Made by a program: the position numbers and the translations under genes. Below the pieces are notes generated by a model. It saw only the letters and a list, made by a program, of their open reading frames with translations. It ran no database searches and was not told the origin of the DNA. Shown here piece after piece: positions 6,083 through 37,592 of a stretch of 64,000 bases of DNA. The first letter of the stretch is position 1, and the number at the start of each line of letters is the position of its first letter. This DNA comes from Halorussus marinus (GTDB taxonomy: Archaea > Halobacteriota > Halobacteria > Halobacteriales > Haladaptataceae). The stretch is from contig NZ_SBIV01000004.1 of assembly GCF_004765795.1 (NCBI RefSeq), forward strand, positions 248,001 through 312,000. Reading direction: 5' to 3'.

Positions 6083-6712
6083 CTACTCGCGGTCGGGCCG
6101 GTCGGGCGGCTCCGGCGGTTCGAGCGCGGCCCGGAGGAGCCGAACCGAGCGCGCTCTCGCGAGGGCGTCCCACGGCGCCGTGATCCGGGTTCCCGCGAGC
6201 GCGAGTCCGAGCGCGACGACGCGGACGAGGATCGCCTCGGTCGAGAGCGAACCGGCGAGTCCGACGAGGGCGGTGTTCGCGAACACGCCGAGCGCCGCGA
6301 CGAAGCTCACAGCGCGAATCGGGGCGTCCCGGAGCGCAGTCGTCGTTTCGGCGCCGAGCTCCCGGAGACCCGAGGCCAGCCAGACGCGCTCGACGACCGG
6401 CCCGACGCGGTCGAGGAGCGCGACGAGCGGACCGACCGCGTAGGTGTCTCGGAGGTCGATGACGATGACGTCGGGGTCGGGGTCGGTCGTGAGCCATCGA
6501 TACAGCGCGGCGTTCCGGACGTATCGTCCGAGGCGTCGGCCCGCGCGCGCCAGCGTCGACTGGCTACTCGCGACACCGAGATCGCGCGCCGACCCCGCCC
6601 AGACGCCGGCGAGCCACGAGGCCGCGAGCCAGACTCGGACCGACTCCACGGCAGACCGGGCGACCCCGACCGCCGTCGACCCGTCCGTCGCACGGTCGGA
6701 TTCGGCGACCAT
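6083..6712 (-). CDS. Conserved haloarchaeal membrane protein, translationally coupled to the DUF4330 gene
   Basis: SxLYRWLTxEPDPDVIVIDLRETY-type motif (here ALYRWLTTDPDPDVIVIDLRDTY), C-terminal hydrophobic helices, LEPPEPP end; start overlaps the upstream stop. Confidence 0.7.
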   Translation of the reverse strand: MVAESDRATDGSTAVGVARSAVESVRVWLAASWLAGVWAGSARDLGVASSQSTLARAGRRLGRYVRNAALYRWLTTDPDPDVIVIDLRDTYAVGPLVALLDRVGPVVERVWLASGLRELGAETTTALRDAPIRAVSFVAALGVFANTALVGLAGSLSTEAILVRVVALGLALAGTRITAPWDALARARSVRLLRAALEPPEPPDRPDRE

Positions 6713-7194
6713 CAGTTCCCGGGTGAAAACGCCGTGACGTGTCCGTCGAGGGTCACCGGGCCGAAGTCGAGTTTCAGCTGTCGGCCGACTTCCAGGGGTT
6801 CGCCCTCGAAGCGGACGCCGTCGTCGGTCTCGGTGGTGTTGAGAGTCAGTTCGAGTGTCACGGTCTGCTTTCGCGGGTGGGTCCGCTCGTGGAGGTTCCC
6901 GTTCTGGTCCTTGACTACGACTTCGGTCGGCCGGACCGACTTGTTCTCGACGGCCGCGACCGATTCGGAGTCGATCGGCCCCTCGGGGACGGCGTCGGCG
7001 ACGTACGGCTGGACGCCGCTGATTTCGAAGGCGACGGTGGTGGTCGTCTGGCGATCAGTGTTCGTCTGTTGACCGTCGTCGCCGAGGACCAACGCCGCGC
7101 CGGCGGCGACGACCGCGAGAACGAGGAGGACGGCGAGCGCGTCGATGATGTTGACGGTGCCGAAGAGCCGGCCCTTGTCGTCGATGAGATCCAT
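6712..7194 (-). CDS. DUF4330-family membrane-anchored protein
   Basis: MDLIDDKGRLFGTVNIIDALAVLLVLAVVAAG N-terminal signature; start moved to the ATG at 7194 (ORF track extends to 7374). Confidence 0.8.
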   Translation of the reverse strand: MDLIDDKGRLFGTVNIIDALAVLLVLAVVAAGAALVLGDDGQQTNTDRQTTTTVAFEISGVQPYVADAVPEGPIDSESVAAVENKSVRPTEVVVKDQNGNLHERTHPRKQTVTLELTLNTTETDDGVRFEGEPLEVGRQLKLDFGPVTLDGHVTAFSPGN

Positions 7195-7412
7195 AGTTCG
7201 TGACTCCGTCTCTGTGTTCACAAGCGTGGTCAGGCCGGTCGTTAAACTGTTGTGTTTCTCGCGCGGATCGCCTCCAGTACGGGGGAGCGGTTGCCGCCAC
7301 CCTCGTCTCGACGTTCCACGTCGAACTGAGCCGCGAGATTCCGGCGCTATTTCGCCACACGCCACCGGAAACAAACAGGTAAGCTGACGTTTTGGGGTGA
7401 GTAGGGATCGGT

Positions 7413-14652: not shown

Positions 14653-15777
14653 ATGAAATTGTCAGTTCTCCACTTAACTAATAATCTAAAAAGTGGAGCA
14701 ATTCCACACACTATTATTGAGCTCTCCCCACACCTCTCAAAAGAGTTCAACATATTTGCGGGCGGGCTTCTGGCAGGAAGTGATGCCCGAGTTAACGAAG
14801 AAGTAATTAATGAGTTAGAAGAGGTAGGAGTGACCCCACTACGATTCCAGTTTGACGTAAAACCGTTCTACAAGGCCATTCGTGAATTATATAATTCATT
14901 AGAATGTATAGATATATTACATACACATCTCGTCCGATCCGGCATCTTTGGGCGTGTTCTTGGCAATATCGCCGGTACACCCTGTATAGTTTCAACTGAA
15001 CAGTCTGTGCATACGGCTGACCAATACAATAAGAAACAGCGCTTTCTAAACAGTGTAACACTTCCACTCGCAGATTATGTAGTACCCATCTCATCAGCAG
15101 TAGAGAAATCGTTTAATTGGTGGGTGAAGTCAACGATACCTTCAAATCGTCGGAGAATTATTCACAATCCAGTTGATGGTAAAAAGATTCAATCATATCG
15201 TGAGGGGTCGATTGCTAGTCCAATTAGACCATTCATTTCGCAATCTTCACCGATTGTAGGTAGCGTAGGCAGACTTGCACCGGTAAAGAACCACGAACTT
15301 CTTCTGGACGCTGTTGCACCACTTACTGACCAGTATCCTGACCTTGGAGTCGTACTCGTCGGGGATGGTCCTCTTGAAGCAACTCTTCGTGAACAGGTGC
15401 AGCAGTTGGGTATAGAAGATTCGGTGCTATTTACGGGCCGAATCGAACGGAGTATGGTTTACACTCTCCTACACGAATTCGACGTGTTCGGAATGCCATC
15501 ACTCCACGAAGGACAGGGGATCGCGCTCTGTGAGGCGATGTGCGCTGGGACACCGATTGTAGCGTCAGATATCCCAGTATTTCGTGACATTCTCGGTGAC
15601 TCGGGACGACTCGTTGACTTCCATGCCGAAGACTGGTCGTCCGAACTTCGTCAAGCAATTTCGGAGAACGACGTAAGAGAGGATCTTCAAGTTCGCGCAC
15701 AAGAGAAATTTTCCCCGCAAAAGACAGCCGCCTTATATGAAGAAATATATAAAAACTCATTGAGGAACAGTGACTGA
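14653..15777 (+). CDS. Glycosyltransferase family 4
   Basis: VGRLAPVKNH, LVGDGPL, PSLHEGQGIALCEAM (Ex7E). Confidence 0.92.
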   Translation: MKLSVLHLTNNLKSGAIPHTIIELSPHLSKEFNIFAGGLLAGSDARVNEEVINELEEVGVTPLRFQFDVKPFYKAIRELYNSLECIDILHTHLVRSGIFGRVLGNIAGTPCIVSTEQSVHTADQYNKKQRFLNSVTLPLADYVVPISSAVEKSFNWWVKSTIPSNRRRIIHNPVDGKKIQSYREGSIASPIRPFISQSSPIVGSVGRLAPVKNHELLLDAVAPLTDQYPDLGVVLVGDGPLEATLREQVQQLGIEDSVLFTGRIERSMVYTLLHEFDVFGMPSLHEGQGIALCEAMCAGTPIVASDIPVFRDILGDSGRLVDFHAEDWSSELRQAISENDVREDLQVRAQEKFSPQKTAALYEEIYKNSLRNSD

Positions 15778-15787
15778 GGGGTTGTGA

Positions 15788-17239
15788 TTAACTTGAAATA
15801 ATATCTCGCAAGGATCTAATTATTAATGTGATCTCGTCTCTAGAAACACCACCGATACCATATAGTATTATAAAGTAAAGTACAGCCGATGAGAGAATGG
15901 TGAACCAAATATTCTCGATCCACAACTGTCTGGCCAGGATATACATGAGGATGGCCGCGGTTCCAATCTTATTGACACCGGGAAAATGACTGTGAATTCC
16001 TAATTTCGAGCGAGACCATAATAGGATCACTGACAATACTAGCAGATATGAAACAACCGTCGTGATTACTGCTCCGAATAAGCCGAGTATCGGGATGAGG
16101 ATAGCATTCAGGATGACGTTAATTACTGCGCCAGAGAACCGAATAGAGGCTATCCTCTTCGGGGATTCTGCCGCAAAAAACAAACTACTATAAAGACGAA
16201 TCAGACTCCAAAGTGCTATGCCTATCCCGAGAGCAGGCAAAAGGTTCGCTGCCTGGACTGCGATTGACTCAGGTGCGATTAATCTTAGCAGAGACTCTCC
16301 TACAAGGAGGAATCCCAAGATTGAGGGGACACAAAGCGTTAGAAAATACCGCACGCCAGAGTTGAGGTATTGAATCGCCCTCTGACTTTCTCCGTCTTCC
16401 CAGAGGTTACTAAATTCGGGGAAAAATGAATTATTCAGCGGGAGTGCGAACAGGAGTATGAGGTTAGAAACTTTGTATGCAGTAGTGTAAACACCAACTG
16501 CGGTCGGCCCAAGGAAATAGCCAATGAGAAGTCGATCTGCACGGCTTAGAAATCCGCTCGAAACCTGACTAATCATAAATAGTGCTGAGTAATCAAATAT
16601 ACCTGGAATAGTTTGGAATTTAGGTACAGTGATTCCGATTCTCCGAATGACATCCGCCTGTAAAATAAGGAAAAAACAAATTTCTATGCCAATGATAGCA
16701 GTAACGACATCAGATAAGGATCCTGACATTATTACAACAATATAACTCACCATGCCTATCGTCACATACGTTTTCAAACCGTCTATGATCGAATAGAGTT
16801 TCAAAAACCTAGACGACTTGTAATAGTTTTTGACTATTCTGTTTAGGATACTAAGTGGCACAAGAACTGAACCCATCTGATACATTGCAGTATACTCTGT
16901 GTCTCCTAACGTCAGAGTTGAGATCTGACTTGAGTAAAAATAAAGAATCGCAGATATAGCGAACCCTATTAATGCAACAAAAGCTAATACGTCAAAATAT
17001 ATAATACATTTTTCTTTTTTATCTGTGCATCGCTGGAAATATCTGATGAGACCAGCATGGAGCCCTAGCCCAAATATTCCTGCAAATAAATTTGTGACGA
17101 CAAGGAGCTGAGCGTAGGCTCCATAGGCGCTGGTACCGAGATAAAATGTGATAATGGGTATGAAGAAAATACCACGTCCTTTTTGTGCTATCTTAACAAC
17201 TGTAGAAACAATAACATCTGATATTATCTTATCTTTCAT
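15788..17239 (-). CDS. Oligosaccharide flippase (Wzx/MOP superfamily)
   Basis: About 14 TM segments; YLGTSAYGAY, DRLLIGYFLGPTAVGVYTTAYKV, LNAILIPILGLFGA. Confidence 0.88.
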   Translation of the reverse strand: MKDKIISDVIVSTVVKIAQKGRGIFFIPIITFYLGTSAYGAYAQLLVVTNLFAGIFGLGLHAGLIRYFQRCTDKKEKCIIYFDVLAFVALIGFAISAILYFYSSQISTLTLGDTEYTAMYQMGSVLVPLSILNRIVKNYYKSSRFLKLYSIIDGLKTYVTIGMVSYIVVIMSGSLSDVVTAIIGIEICFFLILQADVIRRIGITVPKFQTIPGIFDYSALFMISQVSSGFLSRADRLLIGYFLGPTAVGVYTTAYKVSNLILLFALPLNNSFFPEFSNLWEDGESQRAIQYLNSGVRYFLTLCVPSILGFLLVGESLLRLIAPESIAVQAANLLPALGIGIALWSLIRLYSSLFFAAESPKRIASIRFSGAVINVILNAILIPILGLFGAVITTVVSYLLVLSVILLWSRSKLGIHSHFPGVNKIGTAAILMYILARQLWIENIWFTILSSAVLYFIILYGIGGVSRDEITLIIRSLRDIISS

Positions 17240-18668
17240 TTTTATTTCTATAATATATAAAAATAATAGGAGAAAGTAATAATAAATGGTTCGAAATCAA
17301 CCAGAGAGCATTATTACCTAACTCTCCAGAGGCTACCGAGGCAAGACAGACACTGTACACAAGTAAAAAAACAGGAGAGTGGCGGTTCTTTACGAGAGTC
17401 TGGTAGAGAAGTCGAAGTGTGAACCCAAATAAGAGTGCTCCAACAATGATAGCAACGAGGCCACCATCAACGTATAACCGACCAATCATTCCGGGAGGTC
17501 TTCCACCATTTGCATCTGGACGGAATATTCTTCGAATTAATGAACCCACCGTAAGTACCGGTTTATCGGGCCAGACTGATCGAGGAATATAGTTGAGTGG
17601 AACTCGGAAAACAAATGTCCCCCAGAAGTACCCAATCTGTTCCGGAACAATTGATACTGTTACGAGGAGGTTATCTAAGTGACTATTATGGATGCCGAAG
17701 GTCAATATTTCGATGAGCCTGGCAGTATCGAACGACCCCGTTAGATCTCCCCCACTACGAAGACCACCCGAAACGACCGTACCGATTCCGATAAGTACGC
17801 CGAGCACTGGGAGTGACAACTGCTTCACTCGACGGTGTAAGCGATCAGCAGTGAAGTGGATATGACCCGACTTCGTTTCGAGAACGGGATATATATGCAC
17901 GTAGTACATCATAATAACTGAGATTAATATTATCAGAATAACCTGTCCGCGACCTCCTAATAGGAAGAAGAAACCAGAAATAGGAATGAGTGGAAGTAAG
18001 TGCGCGATCCCTGTTCGATTCCCGTCAATAAGCGTCCCAGTTATCCAAACAAGATAACCAATGTACATCGAACGGGCACCCAACTTGAAATGCGTCGCTC
18101 CATCGAACACGTTACTTCGCGGTTCCATCGTCGTATAGAGATATAAGAGGTTCCAATCAAGTGCAGACGCCACGAGTAGGATGTAGGACAACGTACCAAA
18201 GACCATGTACAGTAATCCAGCACGGCGGAACATCGTTCCGTCGTGGTCCCCGGAATCAGAAAAGAAAGTAGGTACCGTAATCCACCGCTCGATTTTAAAG
18301 TAATAGCCAATCAGCAACATCCCGTAGAATAGCACGTATAGTACTGAAACAATGAAAAACGCCGTAGAAAACTCCCAAGAAACCCACTTAGGATATCTAA
18401 AGTAGGGGTCTTGGAGATACACACGATCGAATATCGCTACGGTGGTCATGAACATAAATATTGAATAAAATACAATTGGTTCGAAGATATCGAACGTACC
18501 TCGAATGAGAGAAACAACGGTCGGAATCGCACAAACTAGAAAGAGTAATGCAATCAGCACAGATTGTAAGCCAAAGAAAAAGGAAAGGAGACCGCTAAGT
18601 GTACCGACTACTACGGCTACAAGTGCGACAGACACGTTCCGGTATTTGCCCTCCACAGCTGTATTCAT
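17229..18668 (-). CDS. Wzy-like oligosaccharide repeat-unit polymerase
   Basis: Polytopic with a large late loop containing IPRSVWPDKP and GRLYVDGG; LLGGRG; overlaps the flippase start. Confidence 0.7.
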   Translation of the reverse strand: MNTAVEGKYRNVSVALVAVVVGTLSGLLSFFFGLQSVLIALLFLVCAIPTVVSLIRGTFDIFEPIVFYSIFMFMTTVAIFDRVYLQDPYFRYPKWVSWEFSTAFFIVSVLYVLFYGMLLIGYYFKIERWITVPTFFSDSGDHDGTMFRRAGLLYMVFGTLSYILLVASALDWNLLYLYTTMEPRSNVFDGATHFKLGARSMYIGYLVWITGTLIDGNRTGIAHLLPLIPISGFFFLLGGRGQVILIILISVIMMYYVHIYPVLETKSGHIHFTADRLHRRVKQLSLPVLGVLIGIGTVVSGGLRSGGDLTGSFDTARLIEILTFGIHNSHLDNLLVTVSIVPEQIGYFWGTFVFRVPLNYIPRSVWPDKPVLTVGSLIRRIFRPDANGGRPPGMIGRLYVDGGLVAIIVGALLFGFTLRLLYQTLVKNRHSPVFLLVYSVCLASVASGELGNNALWLISNHLLLLSPIIFIYYRNKNER

Positions 18669-18718: not shown

Positions 18719-19885
18719 CTACGTGGCAAGGGATTCGAGCAATTTCTCATATCGTTCGACATAGCGTCCCATAGAGTACTCCTGAACAATATGTTCGCGC
18801 CCAGAAGTCCCAAGATCAGTCGCATACCCGGGGTTTTCGATGAGCGTTCCTAATGCTTGCGTTATCGATTGGGCATTTCCAGGTTCGACAAGTAATCCCG
18901 TTTCACCGTCTTGAACGACCTCGCTAGTGCCACCGACGTCAGTAGCAACGACAGGACGCTCCATGGCGAGAGCCTCCCGTACAGCACCGGGTATCCCTTC
19001 ACCAAACGACGGCAGCACAAACACGTCAAGGTCGTCGAGAAACGTGGGCATGTCTTCAACCCAACCGACAAAGGTCACGATATCATCTATTCCCTTTTCC
19101 TTTACTCTATTCTCAAGTCGTTGTTTATATGGGCTATCACTGACATTTGGTGGCTTACCAGCAATTCGCAGTTCGATACTCATGCCATTTTTGTACAGAT
19201 CTTCAATTGCTTCGATGAGATACTCAATTCCCTTCCTTTCGGAAAGCACAGCAGCAGTTCCAATCACTGTCGGGAATTCCCCAGGACTTGGTTGTTTTGA
19301 TGGAGAAAACTCATCCACATCTATTCCTTTATGGAAAAAAGTGAATTTATTACTATAAGTATTTTGTTGTCTATTTGTAAATACTTGGTCCGCTTGCTCT
19401 TCGTACTCCATGAATACAGTATCTGCGACTCGTAGTCCCAGTTCATTCAGATATGCCATTTTACCCTTTGATTGGAGTCCGAGCCCGATATTCCAGATGA
19501 TAGATGCATCTACAACGAATGTATTTGGGACGAGAGTAAGGACTTCACGAATGTTTTTACACCATATAACATCAGATTTCTTAAGTAAATATTTAGCCTC
19601 AACGTTAAATTGGAAAATCCGAGCCCCTGTTTTCATCACCTTAGCGGGTGAGAACGAAAGTAGCTCTCGATTATATGTGTCTAATATCCCACGAAAGGGA
19701 ACGATTTCGACTTCGATTCCTTGTTCTGCTGCACGTTGGCATAACTCATCAGAAGACTGCGAAAGAACAATTGGAAGAAACTTGTCTCGATCAATTGATG
19801 TTAGTAATCGGAGGAGCATCTGCGATGCACCACCAAATGATTCGTAAGCAGTGTGGAAAAAAAGGACGGTCGTACGGTCACTCAT
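18719..19885 (-). CDS. Glycosyltransferase family 4
   Basis: GGASQM, RKGIEYLIEA, PSFGEGIPGAVREALA, TDVGGTSEVV; start at MSDRTT (19885). Confidence 0.92.
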   Translation of the reverse strand: MSDRTTVLFFHTAYESFGGASQMLLRLLTSIDRDKFLPIVLSQSSDELCQRAAEQGIEVEIVPFRGILDTYNRELLSFSPAKVMKTGARIFQFNVEAKYLLKKSDVIWCKNIREVLTLVPNTFVVDASIIWNIGLGLQSKGKMAYLNELGLRVADTVFMEYEEQADQVFTNRQQNTYSNKFTFFHKGIDVDEFSPSKQPSPGEFPTVIGTAAVLSERKGIEYLIEAIEDLYKNGMSIELRIAGKPPNVSDSPYKQRLENRVKEKGIDDIVTFVGWVEDMPTFLDDLDVFVLPSFGEGIPGAVREALAMERPVVATDVGGTSEVVQDGETGLLVEPGNAQSITQALGTLIENPGYATDLGTSGREHIVQEYSMGRYVERYEKLLESLAT

Positions 19886-20031
19886 TGTAATGGCTCCTCT
19901 GCACCTGTAATACTTTACTTTAAGGATTTGAGTCGATGACTCACCCATCTGAATATCGTTACGTCTAAATCCCGTTAGTTGGTTTAATGCTAGCTGAACG
20001 CTTAGACAAACCCACCTAAAATCGCTGACTC

Positions 20032-21483
20032 ATGAATTCTCCTAACATCGTACTAGTGGTGATGGATACTGCCTGCGCTAATGAAATAATACCACAAAAT
20101 GCACCGAATATAACGGATATCGCAAAGTCAGGAACCCAATTCTCAAACACATTTGCTACTGCTCCATGGACACTTCCTTCCCATGCAGGGCTCTTCACTG
20201 GAACTTACTCATCGAAGCATGGCGCACATGCAGGCCACAAACAACTGAACGGAAGGTTGGCAACACTTGGAGAAACCTTCCATTCCGCATCATACGAAAC
20301 CATTGCAATTTCGAATAATACGTGGATCAACGACGAGTTTGGATTTGGGCAGGGATTCAAGACGTTCTACAAGACATGGCAATACCTCCAGTCGGACGTG
20401 GATCTCACAGAAACTATCCGTAAAACCGAAGGGTGGGGGAAAATCCAAGCCGTTGCTTCAGAAATTATCGGAGGAAATCCTTTCATCAATTTCGTGAACG
20501 CAGCATACCGAAAGTTCGTGCGAAAAAGCGACGATTACGGCGCGAAGCGAACCAACCGGTGGATTTCCAACTGGCTCGACGACCGCGACACCCACCGACC
20601 GTTCTTACTCTTCGTGAACTACCTCGAACCGCATCTCGAATACCAGCCGCCGAAGGCACACGCCGAGCGGTTCCTCCCGGACGGCTGTCCCTTCGAGGAA
20701 GCGATGGAGGTCCCACAGGACGCCTGGGGGTACATCGCAGGGAACGTTGAAATGTCCGAAAGTGACTTCGAGATACTTCGCGCACTGTACCGAGCCGAGA
20801 TCTCGTATCTGGACCAGCGAATTGGAGAACTGCGTGACGAACTGATAGAGAGGGGTGAGTGGGAAGACACCGTGTTCGTCGTCACGGGTGACCACGGTGA
20901 AAACATAGGAGACCACGGTCTCATGGATCACCAGTACTGCCTCTACGATACGCTGCTCCACGTTCCGCTGGTCATCAACGGCGGCCCCTTCGAAGGCGGC
21001 GGAACCGTCGACGACCTCGTTCAACTCGTGGACCTCGCACCGACGCTACTGGACGTCGCGGACATCGACGCACACGAGATGCGAGCCCAGTTCCAAGGGC
21101 AATCGTTCCACCCGGACGCGGACCCGACCCGCGACCACGTAATCGCGGAGTACATGGCTCCCCAACCATCGATGGACGCGCTCGAAAAACGCGTCGGGAC
21201 ACTCCCCGAATCGGTGCGAACCTACGACCGCTCGCTTCGCGCAATTCGGACGGAAGACCACAAACTCATACGCGGTTCGGACGGGTCGCGAGAGTGCTAC
21301 CGAATTGGTGAGGATCCGAAGGAGACGACCGACTGTAGCAACGAGGATCCCGACTGGGCGTCCACGCTCGAAGCCGACCTCGACGACTGGCTCGGTTCGT
21401 TCGAACACGCCACCGTCGATGGATCGGTCGCGATGAAAGACGACACGAAACGACAACTCGAGGATCTCGGGTACCTTCAGTGA
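20032..21483 (+). CDS. Sulfatase-family protein
   Basis: PNIVLVVMDT, APWTLPSHAGLFTG, NYLEPHLEY, GDHGENIGDHGLMDH, LVDLAPTLL, LEDLGYLQ. Confidence 0.88.
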   Translation: MNSPNIVLVVMDTACANEIIPQNAPNITDIAKSGTQFSNTFATAPWTLPSHAGLFTGTYSSKHGAHAGHKQLNGRLATLGETFHSASYETIAISNNTWINDEFGFGQGFKTFYKTWQYLQSDVDLTETIRKTEGWGKIQAVASEIIGGNPFINFVNAAYRKFVRKSDDYGAKRTNRWISNWLDDRDTHRPFLLFVNYLEPHLEYQPPKAHAERFLPDGCPFEEAMEVPQDAWGYIAGNVEMSESDFEILRALYRAEISYLDQRIGELRDELIERGEWEDTVFVVTGDHGENIGDHGLMDHQYCLYDTLLHVPLVINGGPFEGGGTVDDLVQLVDLAPTLLDVADIDAHEMRAQFQGQSFHPDADPTRDHVIAEYMAPQPSMDALEKRVGTLPESVRTYDRSLRAIRTEDHKLIRGSDGSRECYRIGEDPKETTDCSNEDPDWASTLEADLDDWLGSFEHATVDGSVAMKDDTKRQLEDLGYLQ

Positions 21484-22574
21484 ACGAGCGACCGTAGTTG
21501 GCTTGTCGTTTGCTCGACCGTCGTCTCCCATTCTTGAACGCCCGCAACCGACGTTGGGACCTCGTCGGTTTCGAGCCAGTTGTTGACGCTTCGAGCGAAC
21601 GCTTCCGTTGACTTGATGTCGACCAGTTCGCCGCGCCCATCGACGAGCTCACGGAGCTGGTCCAACTGCGAACACACTGCTGGAACTCCCGACGCCATCG
21701 CTTCCAGCACTGTCCGCGGTAGTCCCTCGGCCCTGCTCGGGAGTACCAGCACGTCTCCGCTCCGATACACTCTCGGCATCTCGTCGTAGGGGACGTGTCC
21801 GAGGAAGTAAACGGACTCCGAAATACCAAGTTTGGCAACGAGTTCCTCAAGGGTTCCGCGCAGCGGGCCATCGCCGCACAGGTACAGGTTGATCTCTGGG
21901 TGTTGCTCCTGAAGGCGAGCCACTGCCCTAATCGCGTCTTCGGGTCGCTTACCTTTCACTAATCGACCCACGAACAGCACCACTAAGCTCTCACTTTCGA
22001 TCAAATCGCTCTTTGGTCCGTCCGGCGTGAACCGCTGAGTGTCGATTCCGTTTGGAACAACTTCGATCCGCGAGCGCACTCCTAAATCCCGCACGCGTCG
22101 TTTGTCTGTCTCTGTGTAACAGAACACCACGTCCGCCTGCTCGAACGTCCACCGACCCAGCGTCCGGAGATACGCGTCGAACACCCGCTCTGTCGCAGAC
22201 TGCGAGTACAGACCGTGATTCGTGATCGCGAGCGGAACATCTCCCAGTCGTCGCTTTAGCGCGGCCAAGTTCGTCGAGAAGTACAGATGCGAGTGAGCGT
22301 GAATTACGTCGAACTCTTCCCCATCGATACCCCACAGATACCGCGCAACGGCCGGGGAGATGTCGTTACCAGCAATCGTCACGCCCGGCGAGAGGCGAAC
22401 TACCGTGTAACCGCACGTTTCCTCGACCGAGGGTAGGTCGGGGCCCTCTTTCGTCGTCAACACTGTCACGTCGTGGCCCATCTCGGCCTGGTCTCGGCTC
22501 ATGGCGTGGACATGGTACTGTCCGCCACCCTTGGTATCGGGGTACAACTTCTGTGCGACGCGAAGGATCCGCAT
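21477..22574 (-). CDS. Glycosyltransferase family 4
   Basis: MRILRV start, VPNGID, FVGRLVKGK, PSRAEGLPRTVLEAMASG. Confidence 0.92.
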   Translation of the reverse strand: MRILRVAQKLYPDTKGGGQYHVHAMSRDQAEMGHDVTVLTTKEGPDLPSVEETCGYTVVRLSPGVTIAGNDISPAVARYLWGIDGEEFDVIHAHSHLYFSTNLAALKRRLGDVPLAITNHGLYSQSATERVFDAYLRTLGRWTFEQADVVFCYTETDKRRVRDLGVRSRIEVVPNGIDTQRFTPDGPKSDLIESESLVVLFVGRLVKGKRPEDAIRAVARLQEQHPEINLYLCGDGPLRGTLEELVAKLGISESVYFLGHVPYDEMPRVYRSGDVLVLPSRAEGLPRTVLEAMASGVPAVCSQLDQLRELVDGRGELVDIKSTEAFARSVNNWLETDEVPTSVAGVQEWETTVEQTTSQLRSLVH

Positions 22575-22798
22575 TTGCTGTTCGGTTGCTAGTATGCAGG
22601 TATCAACGTGACGATGTACATCAGTACTACACATGCTCTCGACTGGATTAGACCGCGCCACAGGAGGTGGACCCGGAATAGGAACCTTGATATGGAGTCA
22701 TTCAACTACGTCTTATCGTTGATTAATCACGGAACCCTCTACAGCAGGTATGGCCTACTGACCGTAGCTGTAGGAAACAAATGGACGGAGGATATTAC

Positions 22799-23776
22799 AT
22801 GAGCATTCTCATTACTGGTGGGTCAGGTTTCATCGGCTCTCACCTCGCCGATCACCTACTCGACGAGTCGAACGACAAAATACTCGTCTTGGACGACTTT
22901 TCGACCGGGGATGCCGGTAACCTCGACCACCTCGACACTGACCGAGTTGAGGTCCGCGACGGAGATATCCGTGACGCCGAGACCGTCCGCGAGACAGTCG
23001 GCGACGCCGACGCCGTCTACCACCTCGCAGCCGCAGTCGGCGTGCAGAACATCGTCGAGAATCCGCTTAACTCCCTGAAGACGAATCTCGAGGGAACCGA
23101 GAACGTCCTCGAAGCCGCAGCCGAAGACCGAACCCCGGTCTTCCTTGCCTCCTCGTCGGAGGTGTACGGCAAGTCCGAGGACGTACCTTTCAGCGAGTCC
23201 GACGACGCCGTCTACGGCCCGACGACGACGACTCGCTGGGGCTACGCGACCGCGAAGGCGACCGACGAATTCCTTGCCCTCGCCTACGCCGACGAACGTG
23301 ACCTTCCGGTCGTCATCGGTCGGTACTTCAACATCGTCGGCCCGCGACAGACCGGGCAGTACGGGATGGTGATCCCGACGTTCGTCGAGCAGGCGCTCGC
23401 GGGCGAGGACCTCACCGTCTACGGCGACGGCACCCAGACACGGAGTTTCACCCACGTCGCGGACGCGGTCGAACTCACCCACGAACTCCTTGAAAACGAG
23501 GACGCCCACGGTGAGATCTTCAACGTCGGCGCACCCGACCCGACGTCCATCAACGACCTCGCCGACCGCGCGATCGAGCTCACCGACTCCGACTCCGAGA
23601 TCACCCACGTTCCCTTCGAGAAGGTGTACGGCGAGGACTTCGAAGAGCCGGACCAACGTGAACCCGACGTGACGAAACTCCGTGAGACGCTCGGCTGGAC
23701 TCCGGAGGCGGACCTCGACAGGATCCTGACCGACGTGATCGACGAGCGAACCTCTGAGGAGGTCGTCGCGGAATGA
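22799..23776 (+). CDS. NAD-dependent nucleotide-sugar epimerase/dehydratase
   Basis: GGSGFIG, SSSEVYG, YATAK (YxxxK), RYFNIVGPRQ. Confidence 0.92.
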   Translation: MSILITGGSGFIGSHLADHLLDESNDKILVLDDFSTGDAGNLDHLDTDRVEVRDGDIRDAETVRETVGDADAVYHLAAAVGVQNIVENPLNSLKTNLEGTENVLEAAAEDRTPVFLASSSEVYGKSEDVPFSESDDAVYGPTTTTRWGYATAKATDEFLALAYADERDLPVVIGRYFNIVGPRQTGQYGMVIPTFVEQALAGEDLTVYGDGTQTRSFTHVADAVELTHELLENEDAHGEIFNVGAPDPTSINDLADRAIELTDSDSEITHVPFEKVYGEDFEEPDQREPDVTKLRETLGWTPEADLDRILTDVIDERTSEEVVAE

Positions 23777-25140
23777 CGGACCGTCCAGCAAACGACCTCC
23801 AGACGCGACTCCAAGACCGAGACGCGCGAATCGGCGTCATCGGCCTCGGCTACGTCGGTCTTCCCCTGAGCCTCGAATTCACGAATGCAGGCTACTCAGT
23901 CGCTGGTTTCGACATTGACACCGATCGCGTCGCGTCCCTCAAAGAGGGTCGGAGCTACGTAGACGACGTGTCCGACGACCAACTCTTGACTGCCCTCGAC
24001 GCGGGGTTCACGCCCGACGACGACCCATCCGTCGTCACCGACTGTGACGCCTACGTACTCGCAGTCCCGACGGGCATCTCGAACGGAGAACCCCAAATGG
24101 ACGCCGTCGAGAGTGCGACGCGGACGGTCGGCGAGCAGGCTGGCGACCGTGACACCCTCGTCGTCGTTAGCAGCACCGTCTATCCAGGCGCGACGAACGA
24201 GGTTGTCGAGCCCACCCTCCACGAGCACTGCGACCCCGACCGAACCCACATTGCGATGGTCCCCGAACGACTCAACCCCGGCGGGGGTGTCCCGGTCGAG
24301 GAGATTCCCCTCGTGGTCGGTGCGGACGACGAGACCGCTCGCACCGCTGCCTCCACGCTCTTCCAGGCGTTCGTCACGGACACGCACCCCGTCGATAGCG
24401 TGACGACCGCCGAACTGACGAAGACCCTAGAGAACACCTACCGGATGGTGAACACTGCACTCGTCAACGAGCTCACCGCGTTCGCCGAACGGTTCGACGC
24501 CGACGTCTGGAACGCCATCGAGGCCGCCTCGACCAAGCCGTTCGGCTTCCAGGCGTTCTATCCCGGTCCCGGCGTCGGCGGCCACTGCATCCCCATCGAC
24601 CCGCAGTTCCTCACGTGGCGGGCGTCCGAACTCGGCACCGAACTCTCGCTCGTCGACGAGGCCCAGCGCATCAACGAGTGGATGCCCTCGGTCGTGGTCG
24701 AGCGAATCGAGCATGTGCTCGCCGAGCGCGGCGTTGAGCCCTGCGAAGCCTCGATCGTCGCCCTCGGACTGGCATACAAAGCCGATGTCGGCGACACCCG
24801 CCGCTCGCCAGCGCTCGAGATCTCGGAGCGCCTCGACCACGACGGGAACGTCATCGCGGTCGACCCCCACGTGGACGCGGTCGAGAGCGACCTCGCAGTC
24901 GTCAAATCGACGGCCGAGGTTCCCCTTGAGGACGCGGACCTCGTCGTGCTCCTCGTCGATCACGAGGCATTCGATATAGACGCAATCACGGCTCGTACCC
25001 CATTGATATTTGACACGCGCGATGCCGTTTCGGTCGACAGTGATGCGGAAGTCGTCACGCTCGGCGATGAGTCCGCTGCACTGAAACAGTCCGTGAAACG
25101 ACGTGAGGAGGAGCAACTCAACTCGACTCCCCGTCGGTAA
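23773..25140 (+). CDS. Nucleotide-sugar dehydrogenase (UDP-N-acetylhexosamine 6-dehydrogenase, WecC/WbpA-like)
   Basis: GLGYVGLP, STVYPG, PERLNPG, KTLENTYR, GPGVGGHCIPIDP. Confidence 0.92.
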   Translation: MTDRPANDLQTRLQDRDARIGVIGLGYVGLPLSLEFTNAGYSVAGFDIDTDRVASLKEGRSYVDDVSDDQLLTALDAGFTPDDDPSVVTDCDAYVLAVPTGISNGEPQMDAVESATRTVGEQAGDRDTLVVVSSTVYPGATNEVVEPTLHEHCDPDRTHIAMVPERLNPGGGVPVEEIPLVVGADDETARTAASTLFQAFVTDTHPVDSVTTAELTKTLENTYRMVNTALVNELTAFAERFDADVWNAIEAASTKPFGFQAFYPGPGVGGHCIPIDPQFLTWRASELGTELSLVDEAQRINEWMPSVVVERIEHVLAERGVEPCEASIVALGLAYKADVGDTRRSPALEISERLDHDGNVIAVDPHVDAVESDLAVVKSTAEVPLEDADLVVLLVDHEAFDIDAITARTPLIFDTRDAVSVDSDAEVVTLGDESAALKQSVKRREEEQLNSTPRR

Positions 25141-25191: not shown

Positions 25192-26628
25192 CTACTTCTC
25201 GCGCTCGTCCGCTCTAATTTCGAGGAGGTCCTCGAACACCTGCCAGAACTGCCGGACCACGATCTCTACGTCGAACCACGGCGACTGCTTGCGGATGTAC
25301 TCAATGTCGTACCTGATCTTCTCGGCCGGTTCTTTCCCCGTCGCGTCGTTGATCTGCGCGAGCCCGGTCAGTCCCGGTTTGACGAACCATCGCTGTCGCC
25401 AGATGTTCACCTCAGATTCGTATTCAGGCTCCAGTTCGGTTATCGCAGGGCGAGGTCCGACGACGCTCATATCGCCGACGAGGATCGACCACAGCTGGGG
25501 GATCTCGTCCAAATGGGTCTTCCGGAGGAACTCGCCAAGGGGCGTCTTCCGATCTCGTTCGATAGCTAAACTCACCTTCTCCTCTGGCTCCGGCTTGAGC
25601 GTCCGGAACTTGTATATCTGAAAGGTATCTCCGAATCGATACGTCCGCTCTTGCGTGTAGAACACGGGACCGTGTCCCTCGATTTTGATGGCAAGCGCAA
25701 TGAGCAGGATAATCGGAGAGAGGGCCAGCAGCGCCGTTCCGGCGAACGCCACGTCGAACAGTTGCTTCAGCAACCGGTCCTGCCAGTCCCACGGTTCAAG
25801 GTCGATCTCCACGACGGAGTCGTCCGCATCGCCCGGCGTCAGCACGGTGTCGGAGTGCTTGCGGTGGACCATCGCCCTGACGCCGTGTTCGTGGCAGGCG
25901 TGGAGCGCGCCGAAGAATTCGGCCCGGTCGGTCCGGTCGAACGCCAACACTGCCGTATCGACATCGTACTCAACGAAGACCTCGTCGAGTTGCGAAAGGC
26001 CGTCGAGCCGTTCGACGGCGTCCGGCGACCATCCGCTCCCGTCAGCGACGACGGGGTTCTCGGCGAGTCGGGGGTCCGTCTCGGTCTCATACGGACTCGG
26101 CGGCGCGACGTAGCCGACGACCGGCATGTCGATGGCTTCGAGTACCTCTAGTATCTCCTCGATGTCGTCGCCGACTACCACAGCACGTTTGCTACCTGTA
26201 GGCCGACGACCGATTGCTACGAACCACGGCGGAAGAACGACTAGCATTGTCATCACGGCCACCCCAAGCGTAGCGCGTGGCAGTCGATACGAGTAGTTTG
26301 CATAGCTGATTGCTGCGAGTGCGAATCCCGAGAGAACCACTCGCTTCTGGACGAGCAAGACCGTATCCAGCAACCGCCGTGGACGAGGCTTGAAAAGCGG
26401 AACGAAACTCGCCGTGACCATGGCAACTGTAGTTAGAAGGGCTATCACTAGATCGCCCCCTCCTAGTACAACGGGCGATAGTCGTCGCACGAGGGGGATG
26501 TGAGTCGTCACCTCCGATTGGACGACGGGGAGGTTACCGACGAGGACGCCGAGCACAGCCGCGGCGACGGTTCCCCCGACGCTCACGACGCGGTACCGGT
26601 GACCGGAGACCATCACGCTATCCCCCAC
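25192..26628 (-). CDS. Bacterial-type polyprenyl-phosphate phosphoglycosyltransferase (WcaJ/WbaP-like sugar transferase)
   Basis: N-terminal TMs, then KQLFDVAF, YKFRTL, FLRKTHLDEIPQLWSILVGDMSVVGPRP, VKPGLTGLAQ; start may be 26613. Confidence 0.92.
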   Translation of the reverse strand: MGDSVMVSGHRYRVVSVGGTVAAAVLGVLVGNLPVVQSEVTTHIPLVRRLSPVVLGGGDLVIALLTTVAMVTASFVPLFKPRPRRLLDTVLLVQKRVVLSGFALAAISYANYSYRLPRATLGVAVMTMLVVLPPWFVAIGRRPTGSKRAVVVGDDIEEILEVLEAIDMPVVGYVAPPSPYETETDPRLAENPVVADGSGWSPDAVERLDGLSQLDEVFVEYDVDTAVLAFDRTDRAEFFGALHACHEHGVRAMVHRKHSDTVLTPGDADDSVVEIDLEPWDWQDRLLKQLFDVAFAGTALLALSPIILLIALAIKIEGHGPVFYTQERTYRFGDTFQIYKFRTLKPEPEEKVSLAIERDRKTPLGEFLRKTHLDEIPQLWSILVGDMSVVGPRPAITELEPEYESEVNIWRQRWFVKPGLTGLAQINDATGKEPAEKIRYDIEYIRKQSPWFDVEIVVRQFWQVFEDLLEIRADEREK

Positions 26629-26682: not shown

Positions 26683-27669
26683 TCACGACTTCCGCACGAG
26701 CGGTTCGTACCAGTCTCTATTCTCTTGATACCACTCCGTAAACTGCTCGACGCCCTCTCGAATTGTCGTCGTCGGCTCGTAATCGAGCAGCTCTCTCGCC
26801 TTCGAGACGTCGGCGTGGGTGTGTTCGGCATCGGCGTCGTTGCGCTCGTCGTACACCAGATCTAGCTCCGGCGCGAGCTGGTCTCGGATTTCTTCGGCCA
26901 GCACTCGAATCTCGATGTTGTCCGTACTGCCGATATTCATCGCCTCGCCATCCGCCGCGTTCGTCTCCAGCAGCGTCCCGTTCGCACGCACCACGTCGTC
27001 GATGTACGTAAAGTCCCGGGTTTGGGTCCCTTCTCCGTAAATAACGGGCGGCTCGCCGTTCATACACCGCGAGACGAAGTTCGAGATGGCCATATTCGGG
27101 CGCATCCGCGGGCCGTACACCGTGAAGTACCGCAGCGACACCGTCGGCAGCCCGTACACCTCGTTGTACACGCGCGCGTACTGTTCCTCGGCGAGCTTCG
27201 ACGCGCCGTAGGGGCTCACGGGCGTCGTCGGATGCTCCTCGTCGTACGGTAGGTAGTTGGGCTTGCCGTACACCGACGAGGAACTCGCGACGACCACGCG
27301 CGTGGTGTCGGAATTGCGGGCTGCCTCCAGTACGTTCAGCGTCCCATCGACGTTGATCTCGTTGACCTTCTGGGGCTGCTCGACGCTCGTCCGAACGCCC
27401 GCCTGCGCGGCCTGGTGGAAGACGAAGTCAGCGTCGCCGACGTACTCGTCGATAAGCTCCTCATCACGAATATCCCCCTGAATCAGTTCGTAACTACCGT
27501 CACTCTCCTCGGCTGCACGCCGACCCTGTTCGACGTTGTGTTCCTTGATGCCGAGATCGTAGTACGGCTCAAAGTTGTCGAGCGCGACTACGTCGTGGCC
27601 GTTATAGGCAAACTGCTCAGCGAGGTGACCACCGATGAAGCCCGCGCCGCCCGTCACGAGGATCTCCAT
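26683..27669 (-). CDS. NAD-dependent epimerase (UDP-glucose/UDP-glucuronate 4-epimerase-like)
   Basis: GGAGFIG, HQAAQAGVR, SPYGASK, LRYFTVYGPRMRPNMA. Confidence 0.92.
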   Translation of the reverse strand: MEILVTGGAGFIGGHLAEQFAYNGHDVVALDNFEPYYDLGIKEHNVEQGRRAAEESDGSYELIQGDIRDEELIDEYVGDADFVFHQAAQAGVRTSVEQPQKVNEINVDGTLNVLEAARNSDTTRVVVASSSSVYGKPNYLPYDEEHPTTPVSPYGASKLAEEQYARVYNEVYGLPTVSLRYFTVYGPRMRPNMAISNFVSRCMNGEPPVIYGEGTQTRDFTYIDDVVRANGTLLETNAADGEAMNIGSTDNIEIRVLAEEIRDQLAPELDLVYDERNDADAEHTHADVSKARELLDYEPTTTIREGVEQFTEWYQENRDWYEPLVRKS

Positions 27670-27721: not shown

Positions 27722-28480
27722 TCAGTTCACGGACGCCTCAACCGCGTCTGACTCATCTACTTCGATATCCTCACCACGCAACAACTTCTCGGCCTTCTCA
27801 CGGTCCTCGGGATAGCCAACATCGATGCGCCAGCCGTCCATCCGGATCGCGTCAATCGTCCGGCCGCTCTGGATTAGCAAATCGATTGCCTCGCTAATCT
27901 CGTACTCGCCCCGGTTCGACGGCTGCACTAGATGACAGGCGTGGAAGATAGCTGACGTAAACGTGTAGAAACCAGTCATCACGAGATTCGACGGCGGGTC
28001 GTCAGGCTTTTCGACAACATCAGTTATCTCGCCGTAATCGTTCGTGTCACAGACGCCGTACCGACCGGCGTCCTCGTAGGGCACCTCTTCGACCAGGAAG
28101 GCAGCATCCGCACGGTCCTCCTGCTGTCGGTTGACCACGTCGCCGAGGTTCGCGTCAAAGACGTTATCGCCGAGCATCAGCATGAAGTCGTCATCGATGT
28201 GCTCCTCGACAGTCAGCAGGGCATGGGCGAGCCCCTTCTGTTCGCGCTGGTGCGCGTAGGTCATCGGAATCCCATCGAATTCATCGCCATAGTGGTCGAT
28301 AATGTCCTGTTTCCGGTAGCCGACGACGACGACGAATTCGTCGGCGCCGAGCTCGGCCAACTGCTCAAAGCAGCGGGTTAGAATGGGCTTTCCGTCGACC
28401 TCAACCATCCCCTTGGGCTTGTCCTCGGTCAGCGGCCGCAGGCGAGTTCCCTCGCCGGCCGCGAGTACGACTGCTTTCAT
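27722..28480 (-). CDS. aglF: UTP--glucose-1-phosphate uridylyltransferase AglF
   Basis: MKAVVLAAGEGTRLRPLTEDKPK, VEKPDDPPSNLVMTGFY, RGEYEISEAI; haloarchaeal AglF pattern. Confidence 0.85.
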   Translation of the reverse strand: MKAVVLAAGEGTRLRPLTEDKPKGMVEVDGKPILTRCFEQLAELGADEFVVVVGYRKQDIIDHYGDEFDGIPMTYAHQREQKGLAHALLTVEEHIDDDFMLMLGDNVFDANLGDVVNRQQEDRADAAFLVEEVPYEDAGRYGVCDTNDYGEITDVVEKPDDPPSNLVMTGFYTFTSAIFHACHLVQPSNRGEYEISEAIDLLIQSGRTIDAIRMDGWRIDVGYPEDREKAEKLLRGEDIEVDESDAVEASVN

Positions 28481-29080: not shown

Positions 29081-31453
29081 CTATTCTTCCACACTAATGT
29101 TCCCGCCGTTCTCGACCGCCCGCTCGGACACCGAAACGCTCTGATCTCCGACCGAGTAGGTGCCGGGATACGAGACAGTCACCGAGAAAGTCCCGTTCTG
29201 GGTGGTCTCAACGCTCCGACGGTACTCGAAAGTGGTGTTTTCGATCTCAACGTCAGTTGAGACAGTCACGATTTCACCAGCGGGAGCCGTCCCGGTAATG
29301 TTCGCCCCAGGAACGAGCGCGAACGCCTTCACCGACCCGTCGTCGCTAGCGTACACCGTCCGATAGTGGCCGACACCCGGTGCACCGTCATCGCCCGCAC
29401 TCCCGAACCGGAAGTGAAGCCGGGAGTACATAATGTCAGACGGCACTTGTCCGGGAAGGTCGAGATCCTTCGTGATGACGAAACCGACCTGATCGTTGAG
29501 CCGCTGGTACTGTGCTTCGGAATTGTTCGCCGCGAGGAACGGCTCGTAGTTGTTATCTGCGAACCCGTAACTCCGCGCCTCCCCGTTCACGAAGTAGTTG
29601 TACATTCGGTTGCGACCCCACTTGCTCAACACGTAGTTCTCGGGAGACTCCAGTCCACGATGGTCGGCATAGGCGTTAATCGACTGGGCCGCCGCGTAGT
29701 TGTCGCTGCCAATCTTCACCTGCTCGTGACGGACGGTCGTCTGGACCGCGCCTGCACTTGTGACGAACAGGAACAATATAGCGAGCGTCGTAATCGTACT
29801 CCGACTGGGAAGTCCAAGCGACAGACTTTCGTCGGAACCGCCGCGAGACGACTTCGATTCGCCGTTCACGAACGCAGGCCAGCGGACGATATCCATCTTT
29901 GCCGCGAAGGCGACGAATCCCCAGCCGGCGAGGATGGCGAAGAAGGGCCCGAGCTCGCCGACGAACCGTCGCTGGAGCGCCGCCAGCACCAGAAAGTACC
30001 CGCCGTAGGTCACAACGACGAGCCACGAAGAGTGATTAGTACGGTACGCTCGCCAGCCGGCATAGATTAGCACTGGGAAACCGAGTACCCAAACGAACCC
30101 GAGTTCTAATAGCGGGCCGAGGAGCAGTTGAATTGGTCCACCACCGAACATAGAGCGGTTTTCAGCTATTCCCGTCCGGAAAAGCAGGAAATCAAGCCGC
30201 TGCATCAACACGTCCATATACGACGGTAAAAATAGCTGTAACACTGCTAACCCACCTAGTGCGCCTGCGACCTCGGTCGTCCCGAAAGCAAATGCAGGCA
30301 ACTCCCTGCGATAGAACGCCTCCCCAATAAGCGACACCCCAACGACCCCGACAAGCACCAGCGCGGGCGAGTATGTGACTACCTCTGAGTGCCATCCGAA
30401 TGCGGTATGGGCAAGATGAGAGAGTACCGATGCGAACGCTAGCCCCGCAACGATCGGTGCGTTCGGGGCCAGCGACGACTCGCCCGCTCGGACGTAAGCC
30501 ACGGTCCGAACAGCAACGAAAACCCCCAGTGCGCCGACCAACAGCGGACCGGCCTCCCAGGCCATCACCTGTCCGGCGACCGCGACGCCGAGCACGCCCG
30601 ACGCGAGCCACGTCCGCGTATCCTCAAGTTCAGGGTGTCCCACATCCGCCAGTTCTACCAGCGCGAGGGCAGTCAGCGCAAGCCATGGGTAGTCGAACGC
30701 GTGGTGGTCGGAGAACCCAAGCCCCGTCCGGTAGGCAAAGGCGGGAATCACCCCGAGCAGCAGTACTGACGCGATACCAACACGGCGGTCGCCGGTTACC
30801 CGGACTGCAATAGCGTACACGAGGACACCGACGACGAGCGCCGACAACACGGGATACCACGCCAGCACCGCGCCGCTGGCGTCCGCACCACCCAGGGCGT
30901 TCGTCACCCACCACAGCGTCGCGACCATCAGCGGTTCGCCGTTCGCGACAGCACCGGGAAGATCCGAAAGTACGCTGAAGTCGAAAATACCGACCGCCTC
31001 GGCCGAGAGCTGGTCAACCCAGTAGCGGTAGTAGTAAGGATCGTTCGAGGAGAGCAGGACGCCGTCCGGGCGGAACACGTGACCCACAAAGTAGGCACGC
31101 ATTGCCGCAACGAACAGTAGTGCCCCGGCGAGCGCGCCAGCGGTCTCCCGCGACACGGAGGGAAGCCAGAGCGACGAGAACGCTGACCTGCTCAATTGAT
31201 CGCCATCGTCCGGTTCGTCGTCGCCGTCCAGACTCGCTCGGACAGCGTCCGGATCGACGACTTCGTACTCGCCGCCCGCTTTCGTTACGATGTCCCGCGA
31301 GACCAGCTCGCCGAAGGTTCCCGAGTCGAACGGTACGTCATCGAACGTCCACCCGTCGGCGCGCTCGTCTACCGCGAGGAGTTCGCGGAGGTCGGATTCG
31401 AGCTCCGGCTTCTCCGCGAGGAGATCGTCAGTCGCCTCGCGTACGTCAGTCAT
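29081..31453 (-). CDS. STT3/AglB-like GT-C oligosaccharyltransferase homolog with a non-canonical C-terminal motif
   Basis: SNDPYYY, GFSDHHAFD, TGIAE, QRRF, about 13 TM plus an external domain; WWDYG position reads VLSKWGRNRMYNYF; start at MTDVRE (31453). Confidence 0.82.
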   Translation of the reverse strand: MTDVREATDDLLAEKPELESDLRELLAVDERADGWTFDDVPFDSGTFGELVSRDIVTKAGGEYEVVDPDAVRASLDGDDEPDDGDQLSRSAFSSLWLPSVSRETAGALAGALLFVAAMRAYFVGHVFRPDGVLLSSNDPYYYRYWVDQLSAEAVGIFDFSVLSDLPGAVANGEPLMVATLWWVTNALGGADASGAVLAWYPVLSALVVGVLVYAIAVRVTGDRRVGIASVLLLGVIPAFAYRTGLGFSDHHAFDYPWLALTALALVELADVGHPELEDTRTWLASGVLGVAVAGQVMAWEAGPLLVGALGVFVAVRTVAYVRAGESSLAPNAPIVAGLAFASVLSHLAHTAFGWHSEVVTYSPALVLVGVVGVSLIGEAFYRRELPAFAFGTTEVAGALGGLAVLQLFLPSYMDVLMQRLDFLLFRTGIAENRSMFGGGPIQLLLGPLLELGFVWVLGFPVLIYAGWRAYRTNHSSWLVVVTYGGYFLVLAALQRRFVGELGPFFAILAGWGFVAFAAKMDIVRWPAFVNGESKSSRGGSDESLSLGLPSRSTITTLAILFLFVTSAGAVQTTVRHEQVKIGSDNYAAAQSINAYADHRGLESPENYVLSKWGRNRMYNYFVNGEARSYGFADNNYEPFLAANNSEAQYQRLNDQVGFVITKDLDLPGQVPSDIMYSRLHFRFGSAGDDGAPGVGHYRTVYASDDGSVKAFALVPGANITGTAPAGEIVTVSTDVEIENTTFEYRRSVETTQNGTFSVTVSYPGTYSVGDQSVSVSERAVENGGNISVEE

Positions 31454-31524: not shown

Positions 31525-31678
31525 CGCTCTTCTGTAGGAGATCGTTGGTACAGTCGTCACTAGTTGAGTAGGAACGCTAGTTGATTTCCTAAGCACCTCT
31601 ACCGTGGACTCACGATTCAATCCTCACAGCCGAAAATCGCAACACTGTAGTCCATCAGCAATGATCTACGCAAGAGCG
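31525..31678. mobile_element. Putative 154-bp IS1595-type (ISH4-like) MITE or end-pair remnant
   Basis: Ends cgctcttctgtaggagatcgttggt and (reverse complement) cgctcttgcgtagatcattgctgat resemble the IS1595 end at 31688; no target duplication found. Confidence 0.5.
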
Positions 31679-31687
31679 ATTTTCGTA

Positions 31688-32150: not shown

Positions 32151-32331
32151 ACCGATCAAAAGCACCGCAATGAACAGGATTAAACCCCGACCCCAACCTG
32201 CCCACGACGCCGAAAAGACGAGAGACAGCGGAGAATCGAACGGTACTTCCATCCCGAAAAGGACCATATTTTAATAGAAGGGTTAATTGAAACAGCCACA
32301 AATTCGGAATAGTCGTATCCCCCGATTCGCA

Positions 32332-35595: not shown

Positions 35596-35672
35596 TGGTC
35601 TCACAAGCATCCGCGTCGGATGCTTGACTATCTCCGTATTTAGATAGGACTGATAAATAACTATAGGCCTAA

Positions 35673-37520: not shown

Positions 37521-37592
37521 CCAAGCCGAGTCTCAAATAGATAGTGGACCTCGTAGATACTGACATATAAATTATAGGATTGGCGATCTCTC

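Follow-up and report, generated by a model that had tools for sequence, protein, structure and literature searches.

Halobacterium salinarum's surface-layer (S-layer) protein was the first prokaryotic glycoprotein to be described (PMC2952790, PMC6591318 and PMC12624080; papers are cited here and below for the passages that bear on each point), and the repeat-unit glycan at its Asn-2 is assembled on dolichol pyrophosphate (PMC2952790). This glycan persists when Ser-4 is changed to Val, Leu or Asn, a result for which the passage concerned offers no explanation, one transferase gene being known (PMC2952790). Whether AglB makes the Asn-2 glycan is left open in the relevant passage of PMC6591318, and that of PMC12624080 states that nothing is known of its assembly. 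In AglB, roles have been described for the Asp of external loop 1 (EL1), the DHH motif and an Arg (PMC8342417, PMC7226087), with an Asp/Glu pair that grips the amide of the acceptor Asn and a WWD motif that reads only the +2 hydroxyl (PMC7226087). Here we analysed a 64,000-nucleotide stretch of the Halorussus marinus genome (contig NZ_SBIV01000004.1, positions 248,001 to 312,000; hereafter the window), which contains a gene for an AglB/STT3-like transferase, P0001, that lacks the WWD and DK motifs (Table 1). Judging from sequence comparison, we consider it probable that P0001 is a second oligosaccharyltransferase (OST), which would transfer a repeat-unit polysaccharide from dolichol pyrophosphate to an Asn that is residue 2 of the mature S-layer protein or adjoins it, independently of a sequon.

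P0001 matches the Pfam domains STT3 and AglB_L1 and scores 146 bits against TIGR04154, which is below the curated cut-off of 450 for archaeosortase-associated AglB. A confident AlphaFold model built from 80 relatives (mean predicted local distance difference test score 90.4) comprises a GT-C membrane domain and a C-terminal globular domain, the arrangement of STT3, PglB and AglB. Its closest structures are those of Archaeoglobus fulgidus AglB-L (Foldseek E 4e-23), and the comparison with Archaeoglobus AglB that the original prediction had proposed as a check gave a Z of 35.3 and a root-mean-square deviation (rmsd) of 4.1 over 644 residues, at 18% identity, for 7E9S. Residues 579-714 superpose on the C-terminal domain of AglB-S2 with a Z of 12.2 and an rmsd of 2.7 over 121 residues. 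A PMT Pfam match was absent at E 0.01, and Pmt folds reached a Z of only ~20, compared with 35 for AglB.

Active-site equivalences were drawn from a profile of 100 diverse family members aligned to A. fulgidus AglB (AfAglB). The DPYY (residues 138-141), DHH (249-251) and IAE (429-431) motifs, which the original prediction had described as retained, are all in place, and D138, D249, H250, W299 and R496 are invariant across the 100 members. The TIXE/SVSE motif of EL5 is represented by its Glu in 99 and by Ile or Val in 93 of these proteins, and the position equivalent to His81, near the phosphate, is variable across the family.

At the place of WWDYG, P0001 reads SKWGRNRMYNYF (residues 610-621), and a scan of the whole 790-residue protein found WWD nowhere. 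The earlier claim that WWDYG had been replaced holds only for the first Trp and the Asp, since the second Trp (W612) is kept. Both MAFFT and hhalign set YVLSKW over GVMSWW, the hhalign match of the core alone being weak (E 0.068); the model forms a strand and then a helix at 608-623; and the WWD-bearing family member P0346 reads YVLSWWDRTRMYNYF at the same position. From this register, the superposed model and that member, we conclude that SKWG occupies the place of WWDY. Across the family the place reads x-W-[G/S/D], with W612 kept in 98/100 members and Asp third in 17/100, and of 349 fetched proteins longer than 500 residues, 2 have the first Trp and 1 has the full WWD. The residues that follow the Trp are themselves conserved (R616 in 97/100, N619 in 100/100), which argues that the replacement reflects neither chance nor decay. 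We rejected a decayed pseudogene on the basis of the intact frame and the conserved family, and the WWD-bearing member as an ancestral form because it is nested, not basal, in a FastTree phylogeny.

The DK side of the pocket differs as well. By alignment, the canonical DWKM...K segment of the DK/MI motif lies opposite a gap, and the model has no helix after strand 658-662; 64 residues separate the Trp from the next helix common to both in the family, compared with 116 in canonical AglB. Because WWD is lost, the DK segment aligns to a gap and the span is shorter, both halves of the predicted Ser/Thr pocket are gone, with the putative Asn-activating part intact. The DGGK region reads GE[SA]xSYG[YF]A in the family, the register past the Trp being ambiguous. 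Tyr468 of PglB contacts the donor sugar (PMC6215017), and R616 falls at its place only in an ungapped register, both aligners opening a four-residue gap after the Trp.

The H. marinus genome (G000) encodes, on a different contig, a canonical, WWDYG-bearing AglB of 1055 residues (P0121, G000:C1:567042-570209), which is the separate aglB that the original prediction had recommended looking for; this rules out P0001 as the sole OST and upholds the advice against annotating it simply as aglB. Canonical AglB scored above cut-off in 66/66 member genomes tested. In the phylogeny, built with FastTree from 100 members together with 11 canonical AglBs and used for its topology without reliance on support values, the family forms its own clade apart from the canonical AglBs. 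Taken together, the P0001 family is a distinct subfamily and not canonical AglB. It comprises at least 414 clusters at 50% identity (E below 1e-30) and occurs in 154 of 301 sampled haloarchaeal-class genomes (best E below 1e-50) and, at E 1e-60, in 0/128 genomes from elsewhere in the phylum. Named members include VNG_0005H of H. salinarum NRC-1 and proteins of Haloarcula hispanica and H. marismortui; some genomes hold two or three members. We found no study of the family in the searched literature, earlier mention being possible in subscription papers, the original mutagenesis paper, AglB surveys and supplements.

An observation new here is that Asn-2 of the S-layer protein covaries with family membership. 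We scored one protein per genome, the best match to TIGR04207 (surface-glycoprotein signal peptide), in a discovery set of 31 genomes searched and 30 loci returned per side, and fixed the cleavage rule before a replication with 30 new members and 30 new non-members. Asn stood at mature position +2 in 17/30 members versus 0/30 non-members in the discovery set and in 12/30 versus 1/30 in the replication (29/60 versus 1/60 pooled), and within +1 to +3 in 22/30 versus 4/30 and 21/30 versus 2/30, respectively (43/60 versus 6/60 pooled). The peak is positional, at +2, with background Asn at 5.2% in members and 7.4% in the others, and by genus the Asn signal was higher in members in 12, lower in 0 and tied in 5. 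All four S-layer-type proteins of the H. marinus genome (L239-L242) have an Asn directly after an Ala run, at +1 by the rule. A sequon surrounded the early Asn in only 8 of the 43 member proteins, the other 35 having none.

These counts bear on whether P0001 could be an ordinary sequon-reading OST that is specialised for a different donor only, its remaining Trp and new residues reading the +2 Ser/Thr. The kept W612, the Asp found third in some members and the single WWD-bearing member would suit such an enzyme, but the near-loss of the first Trp, the gap opposite the DK helix, the shortened span, the 35 N-terminal Asn residues without a sequon and the nested position of the WWD-bearing member make it quite unlikely. 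The original prediction had proposed an active GT-C enzyme with different acceptor rules, and in this respect it stands, with catalytic residues kept and a rule that has probably changed. Among the three options it offered, sequon-independent N-glycosylation is the best fit, and O-glycosylation is unsupported.

The genomic partners of the family bear on its donor. WcaJ/WbaP-like priming transferases make lipid-pyrophosphate sugars, and one such enzyme, the sole copy in the genome, is encoded near P0001. Across the 301 genomes, the family and a priming transferase occur together in 146, the family alone in 8, a priming transferase alone in 27 and neither in 120, which places a priming transferase in 146/154 member versus 27/147 non-member genomes; within one mixed genus the corresponding counts are 20, 0, 2 and 21. 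Of the 58 genomes with all three coordinates listed, 43 have a priming transferase no more than 25 kb from the family gene, versus 1 for canonical aglB, and at 49 of 80 family loci it lies within 10 kb. UppP, a lipid-pyrophosphate phosphatase, was found in 26/30 member versus 2/30 non-member genomes. Because the family tracks the priming transferase and UppP, the evidence points to a predicted donor that is a dolichol-pyrophosphate repeat-unit glycan. The strongest clue to that donor, one absent from the original prediction, is the association with the priming-transferase/flippase cluster. Near the family gene in the 80 loci, Wzx occurs 8 times, a homologue of the candidate Wzy 0 times and one GT4 glycosyltransferase 21 times. 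Genes for VanZ-like (13), YdjM-like (17) and BacA/UppP (9) proteins also recur beside the family (loci L002-L081), and these neighbours, together with that for a DUF4330 protein, may be further parts of the pathway.

This linkage would fit equally well a ligase that passes the same dolichol-pyrophosphate polysaccharide to a lipid or other non-protein acceptor to anchor capsule or exopolysaccharide, the part that WaaL plays for O-antigen. Enzymes that act on lipids are found among GT-C folds (ArnT, Z 24.8), and passages in PMC5467301 and PMC9943897 report acidic exopolysaccharide from haloarchaea that bear the family. However, such a ligase would leave unexplained the S-layer Asn-2 peak, which follows the family and not the priming transferase alone: among genomes with the priming transferase only (27 searched, 20 with a match, 2 of these unscored), Asn was at +2 in 1/18 and within +1 to +3 in 4/18. 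The sole non-member with Asn-2 also has UppP. P0001 retains, moreover, the Glu of EL5 and the peptide-binding domain of AglB in its entirety, and we regard the lipid ligase as unlikely. A further alternative is that P0001 transfers nothing to protein and either releases free polysaccharide by hydrolysis or acts as a helper of AglB or of some other protein of the cluster that modifies Asn-2. AglB has a hydrolytic side activity (PMC8342417), the His81-equivalent position varies, and unexplained membrane proteins travel with the cluster; yet the invariant catalytic set, together with the conserved new motif on the acceptor side, speaks for a specific acceptor, which leaves this alternative very unlikely.

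For N-terminal Asn transfer by P0001, H. salinarum provides a comparison. One genome, G023, has a family copy 98% identical to VNG_0005H; 3.3 kb upstream of this copy is the S-layer gene, and 4.3 kb downstream is the priming transferase. The locus runs from the S-layer gene (+) through small genes to the family gene (+), then glmS with two nucleotidyltransferase-like genes (-), and ends with the priming transferase (+). Its S-layer protein begins Ala-Asn-Ala-Asp, a natural Asn-2 without a sequon. RNA-library contigs in G023-like strains run from the family gene to the priming transferase, and a glycosyltransferase-rich island just past such genes is described in a passage of PMC7002104.

These data suggest a possible sequence of events. 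The priming transferase would load a sugar-1-phosphate on dolichol phosphate and GT4 enzymes would extend the unit, after which Wzx would flip it and a Wzy-type enzyme would polymerise it, roles that are assigned by family function. Following signal-peptidase cleavage, the new N-terminus, (Ala/Val/Thr)-Asn, would enter the site, where, in the manner of AglB, D138 and E431 with the DHH-bound metal would activate the amide, while R496 would hold the lipid phosphate. Instead of the +2 hydroxyl, the remodelled xWxxNRxYN helix may read either the end of the chain or the donor, and UppP would recycle the released dolichol pyrophosphate.

Several points weigh against N-terminal Asn transfer. The evidence is wholly comparative, and the activity of the family is a prediction. 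In the scored protein, 31/60 member genomes have no Asn at exactly +2 and 17/60 have none within +1 to +3, which includes three genomes of genus g45 that have none. The cleavage site comes from a simple rule, which puts Asn at +1 in H. marinus itself, and we picked the genomes from tables, with related genomes not being independent. Eight member genomes have no priming transferase and G023 has no UppP; the Wzy match falls short of the cut-off, and none of the 80 loci has a homologue of it nearby. A different cluster gene (DUF4330, VanZ or membrane proteins without assigned function) could account for the Asn-2 covariation, and the four-residue gap directly after the Trp means that a role for R616 can hardly be read from the alignments. 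H. hispanica has a family member, yet the passage on it reports only short S-layer glycans. For G023-like strains, one raw-read RNA run gave a depth below 6 on both strands over the gene, too shallow and two-stranded for an expression claim.

The original prediction had also raised O-glycosylation of Thr-rich stalks, naming that of a nearby PGF-CTERM protein as an example. A Thr-rich PGF-CTERM gene with BGTF surface domains does lie at window positions 32332-34044 (-), and Pmt enzymes share the GT-C fold. However, because this neighbour is not conserved (0/80 loci), an IS1595-type remnant intervenes and the Asn-activating Asp/Glu pair is kept, the proposal is unsupported. S-layer O-glycosylation is reported in Haloferax volcanii (PMC8241124), a control without the partners of the family in which the family itself was not searched, and about half of sampled haloarchaea are without the family; we consider O-glycosylation most improbable. 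The remnant, of a transposase, lies at 31617-32301, between the two genes. Links to the adjacent PGF-CTERM, archaellin and CetZ genes were rejected, since these are near 0, 1 and 1 of 80 loci. P0001 is probably not the unknown OST of the H. volcanii Agl5-15 pathway (PMC8241124), that control being without PF02397 and PF02673 and no Haloferax being among the listed matches, although the family was not searched directly there.

Within the window, the P0001 gene lies at one end of a low-GC glycan cluster, with glmS and UppP at the far end; the BacA/UppP gene (G000:C4:245562-246344) sits outside the window, 1.7 kb to the left of its start. The cluster contains both a priming phosphoglycosyl transferase and a Wzx flippase, two parts of a Wzx/Wzy-dependent pathway. 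A second protein of the sulfatase/alkaline-phosphatase fold is encoded at 13688-14647, beside that at 20032-21483, and the two could possibly transfer sulfo or phospho groups to the repeat unit. A DDE transposase (12058-13230) borders the low-GC glycan genes on their left side, and the GC fraction is 0.44 at 13.5-20 kb compared with ~0.7 outside; the transposases and low GC suggest a swapped glycan cassette. Past the PGF-CTERM gene lie genes for an archaellin-type protein of ~460 residues with a long insertion between its conserved N- and C-terminal parts (34219-35607, -) and for a membrane protein that weakly resembles rhomboids and has a long tail fused to it (35871-38768, -), followed by a CetZ tubulin-like gene.

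Table 1. Features of the window, with positions counted from its first nucleotide; fractions of 100 refer to diverse family members.
Feature	Position	Strand	Basis
AglB/STT3-like transferase without WWD and DK motifs, 790 residues (P0001)	29081..31453	-	Pfam, TIGR04154, model
Winged-helix-like N-terminal domain, ~80 residues, before first membrane helix	31214..31453	-	fold search
S-N-D 136-138 = G-N-D47 of A. fulgidus AglB, catalytic Asp	31040..31048	-	N137, D138 100/100
D-H-H 249-251 = D161-H-H163, metal-binding motif	30701..30709	-	profile alignment
I-A-E 429-431 = TIXE Glu360 (TIAE360)	30161..30169	-	E431 99/100; Thr not conserved
R496 = Arg426 near lipid phosphate (Q-N-R-F arginine; R426/R375)	29966..29968	-	100/100
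SKWGRNRMYNYF 610-621, replaces WWDYG; family pattern S-x-W-x-x-N-R-x-Y-N	29591..29626	-	alignments, model
WcaJ/WbaP-like polyprenyl phosphoglycosyl (priming) transferase	25192..26628	-	profile search
GalE-like nucleoside-diphosphate (NDP)-sugar epimerase	26683..27669	-	profile search
Sugar-phosphate nucleotidyltransferase	27722..28480	-	profile search
Uridine-diphosphate (UDP)-sugar dehydrogenase (uronic acids)	23773..25140	+	profile search
Second NDP-sugar epimerase/dehydratase	22781..23776	+	profile search
GT4 glycosyltransferase	21477..22661	-	profile search
Sulfatase-family protein	20032..21483	+	profile search
GT4 glycosyltransferase	18719..19948	-	profile search
Candidate Wzy-type polymerase, ~11 hydrophobic segments	17229..18668	-	O_anti_polymase E 5e-4, 19.9 bits, cut-off 24.2
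Wzx-type flippase	15788..17239	-	Polysacc_synt E 1e-18
GT4 glycosyltransferase	14653..15777	+	profile search
DUF4330 protein, recurring family neighbour	6712..7272	-	15/80 or 17/80 loci
glmS, amino-sugar supply, recurring family neighbour	455..2245	+	17/80 loci

A fold search with the N-terminal domain of P0001 returned generic winged helices only (best Z 7.5). The same domain is present on an EMC3/TMCO1-like (DUF106, Oxa1-superfamily) membrane protein of the same genome (E 1e-11; G000:C4:355162-356070, L273:1663-2574), outside the window, and docking of the P0001 domain at export sites is speculation. Many family members (P0017, P0021-P0023 and others) carry a C-terminal LamG-like jelly-roll domain of ~200 residues, a possible glycan- or substrate-binding add-on.

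A wider reading seems to us evenly balanced between right and wrong. About half of haloarchaea would run a second N-glycosylation system, in which an AglB-derived enzyme reads a freshly cleaved N-terminus (a small residue, then Asn) rather than a sequon and caps the S-layer with a long glycosaminoglycan-like polymer from a bacterial-type priming, flippase and polymerase pathway; VNG_0005H would be the missing Asn-2 transferase of H. salinarum, and the winged-helix domain, shared with the Oxa1-type insertase, would dock at the export site. If true, this would explain a decades-old puzzle in H. salinarum, namely a different lipid carrier, a dispensable sequon hydroxyl and one known transferase gene, and with the family comes a named gene in a strain that is amenable to genetics and already has an aglB deletion. 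It would also mean that an OST scaffold can change its acceptor rule, provide about half of haloarchaea with a pathway to proteoglycan-like coats, and yield a transferase that labels protein N-termini with polymers.

Compared with haloarchaeal canonical AglB (TIGR04154; P0121), the family shares the AglB_L1 domain and a membrane domain that hhalign matches with 99.7% probability at ~20% identity, whereas WWDYGH is present in 30/30 canonical copies, the family is a separate clade, and the canonical copies lie distant from a priming transferase. With A. fulgidus AglB-L (PDB 7E9S, 3WAJ, 5GMY) it shares the whole fold, including the C-terminal beta domain, and the G-N-D, D-H-H, xIxE Glu and Arg positions align; unlike that enzyme, the family has no WWD, DK helix or insertion, is variable at the His81 position, and has an extra winged-helix-like domain on the cytoplasmic side and linkage to a priming transferase. 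Bacterial Wzx/Wzy pathways that end in a ligase or OST (WaaL, PglL, PglB) likewise have a priming transferase, a flippase, GT-C transfer and recycling by UppP, and their polymerase has a candidate counterpart here, but in the present case the enzyme for the transfer step derives from AglB, and its acceptor is predicted to be the N-terminus of a protein. The Asn-2 N-glycan of H. salinarum has no enzyme assigned, and its tie to the family is one that we infer; its dolichol-pyrophosphate carrier, repeating sulfated uronic-acid unit, N-terminal Asn and dispensable +2 Ser (PMC2952790) are what the family predicts, in a species that has a member.

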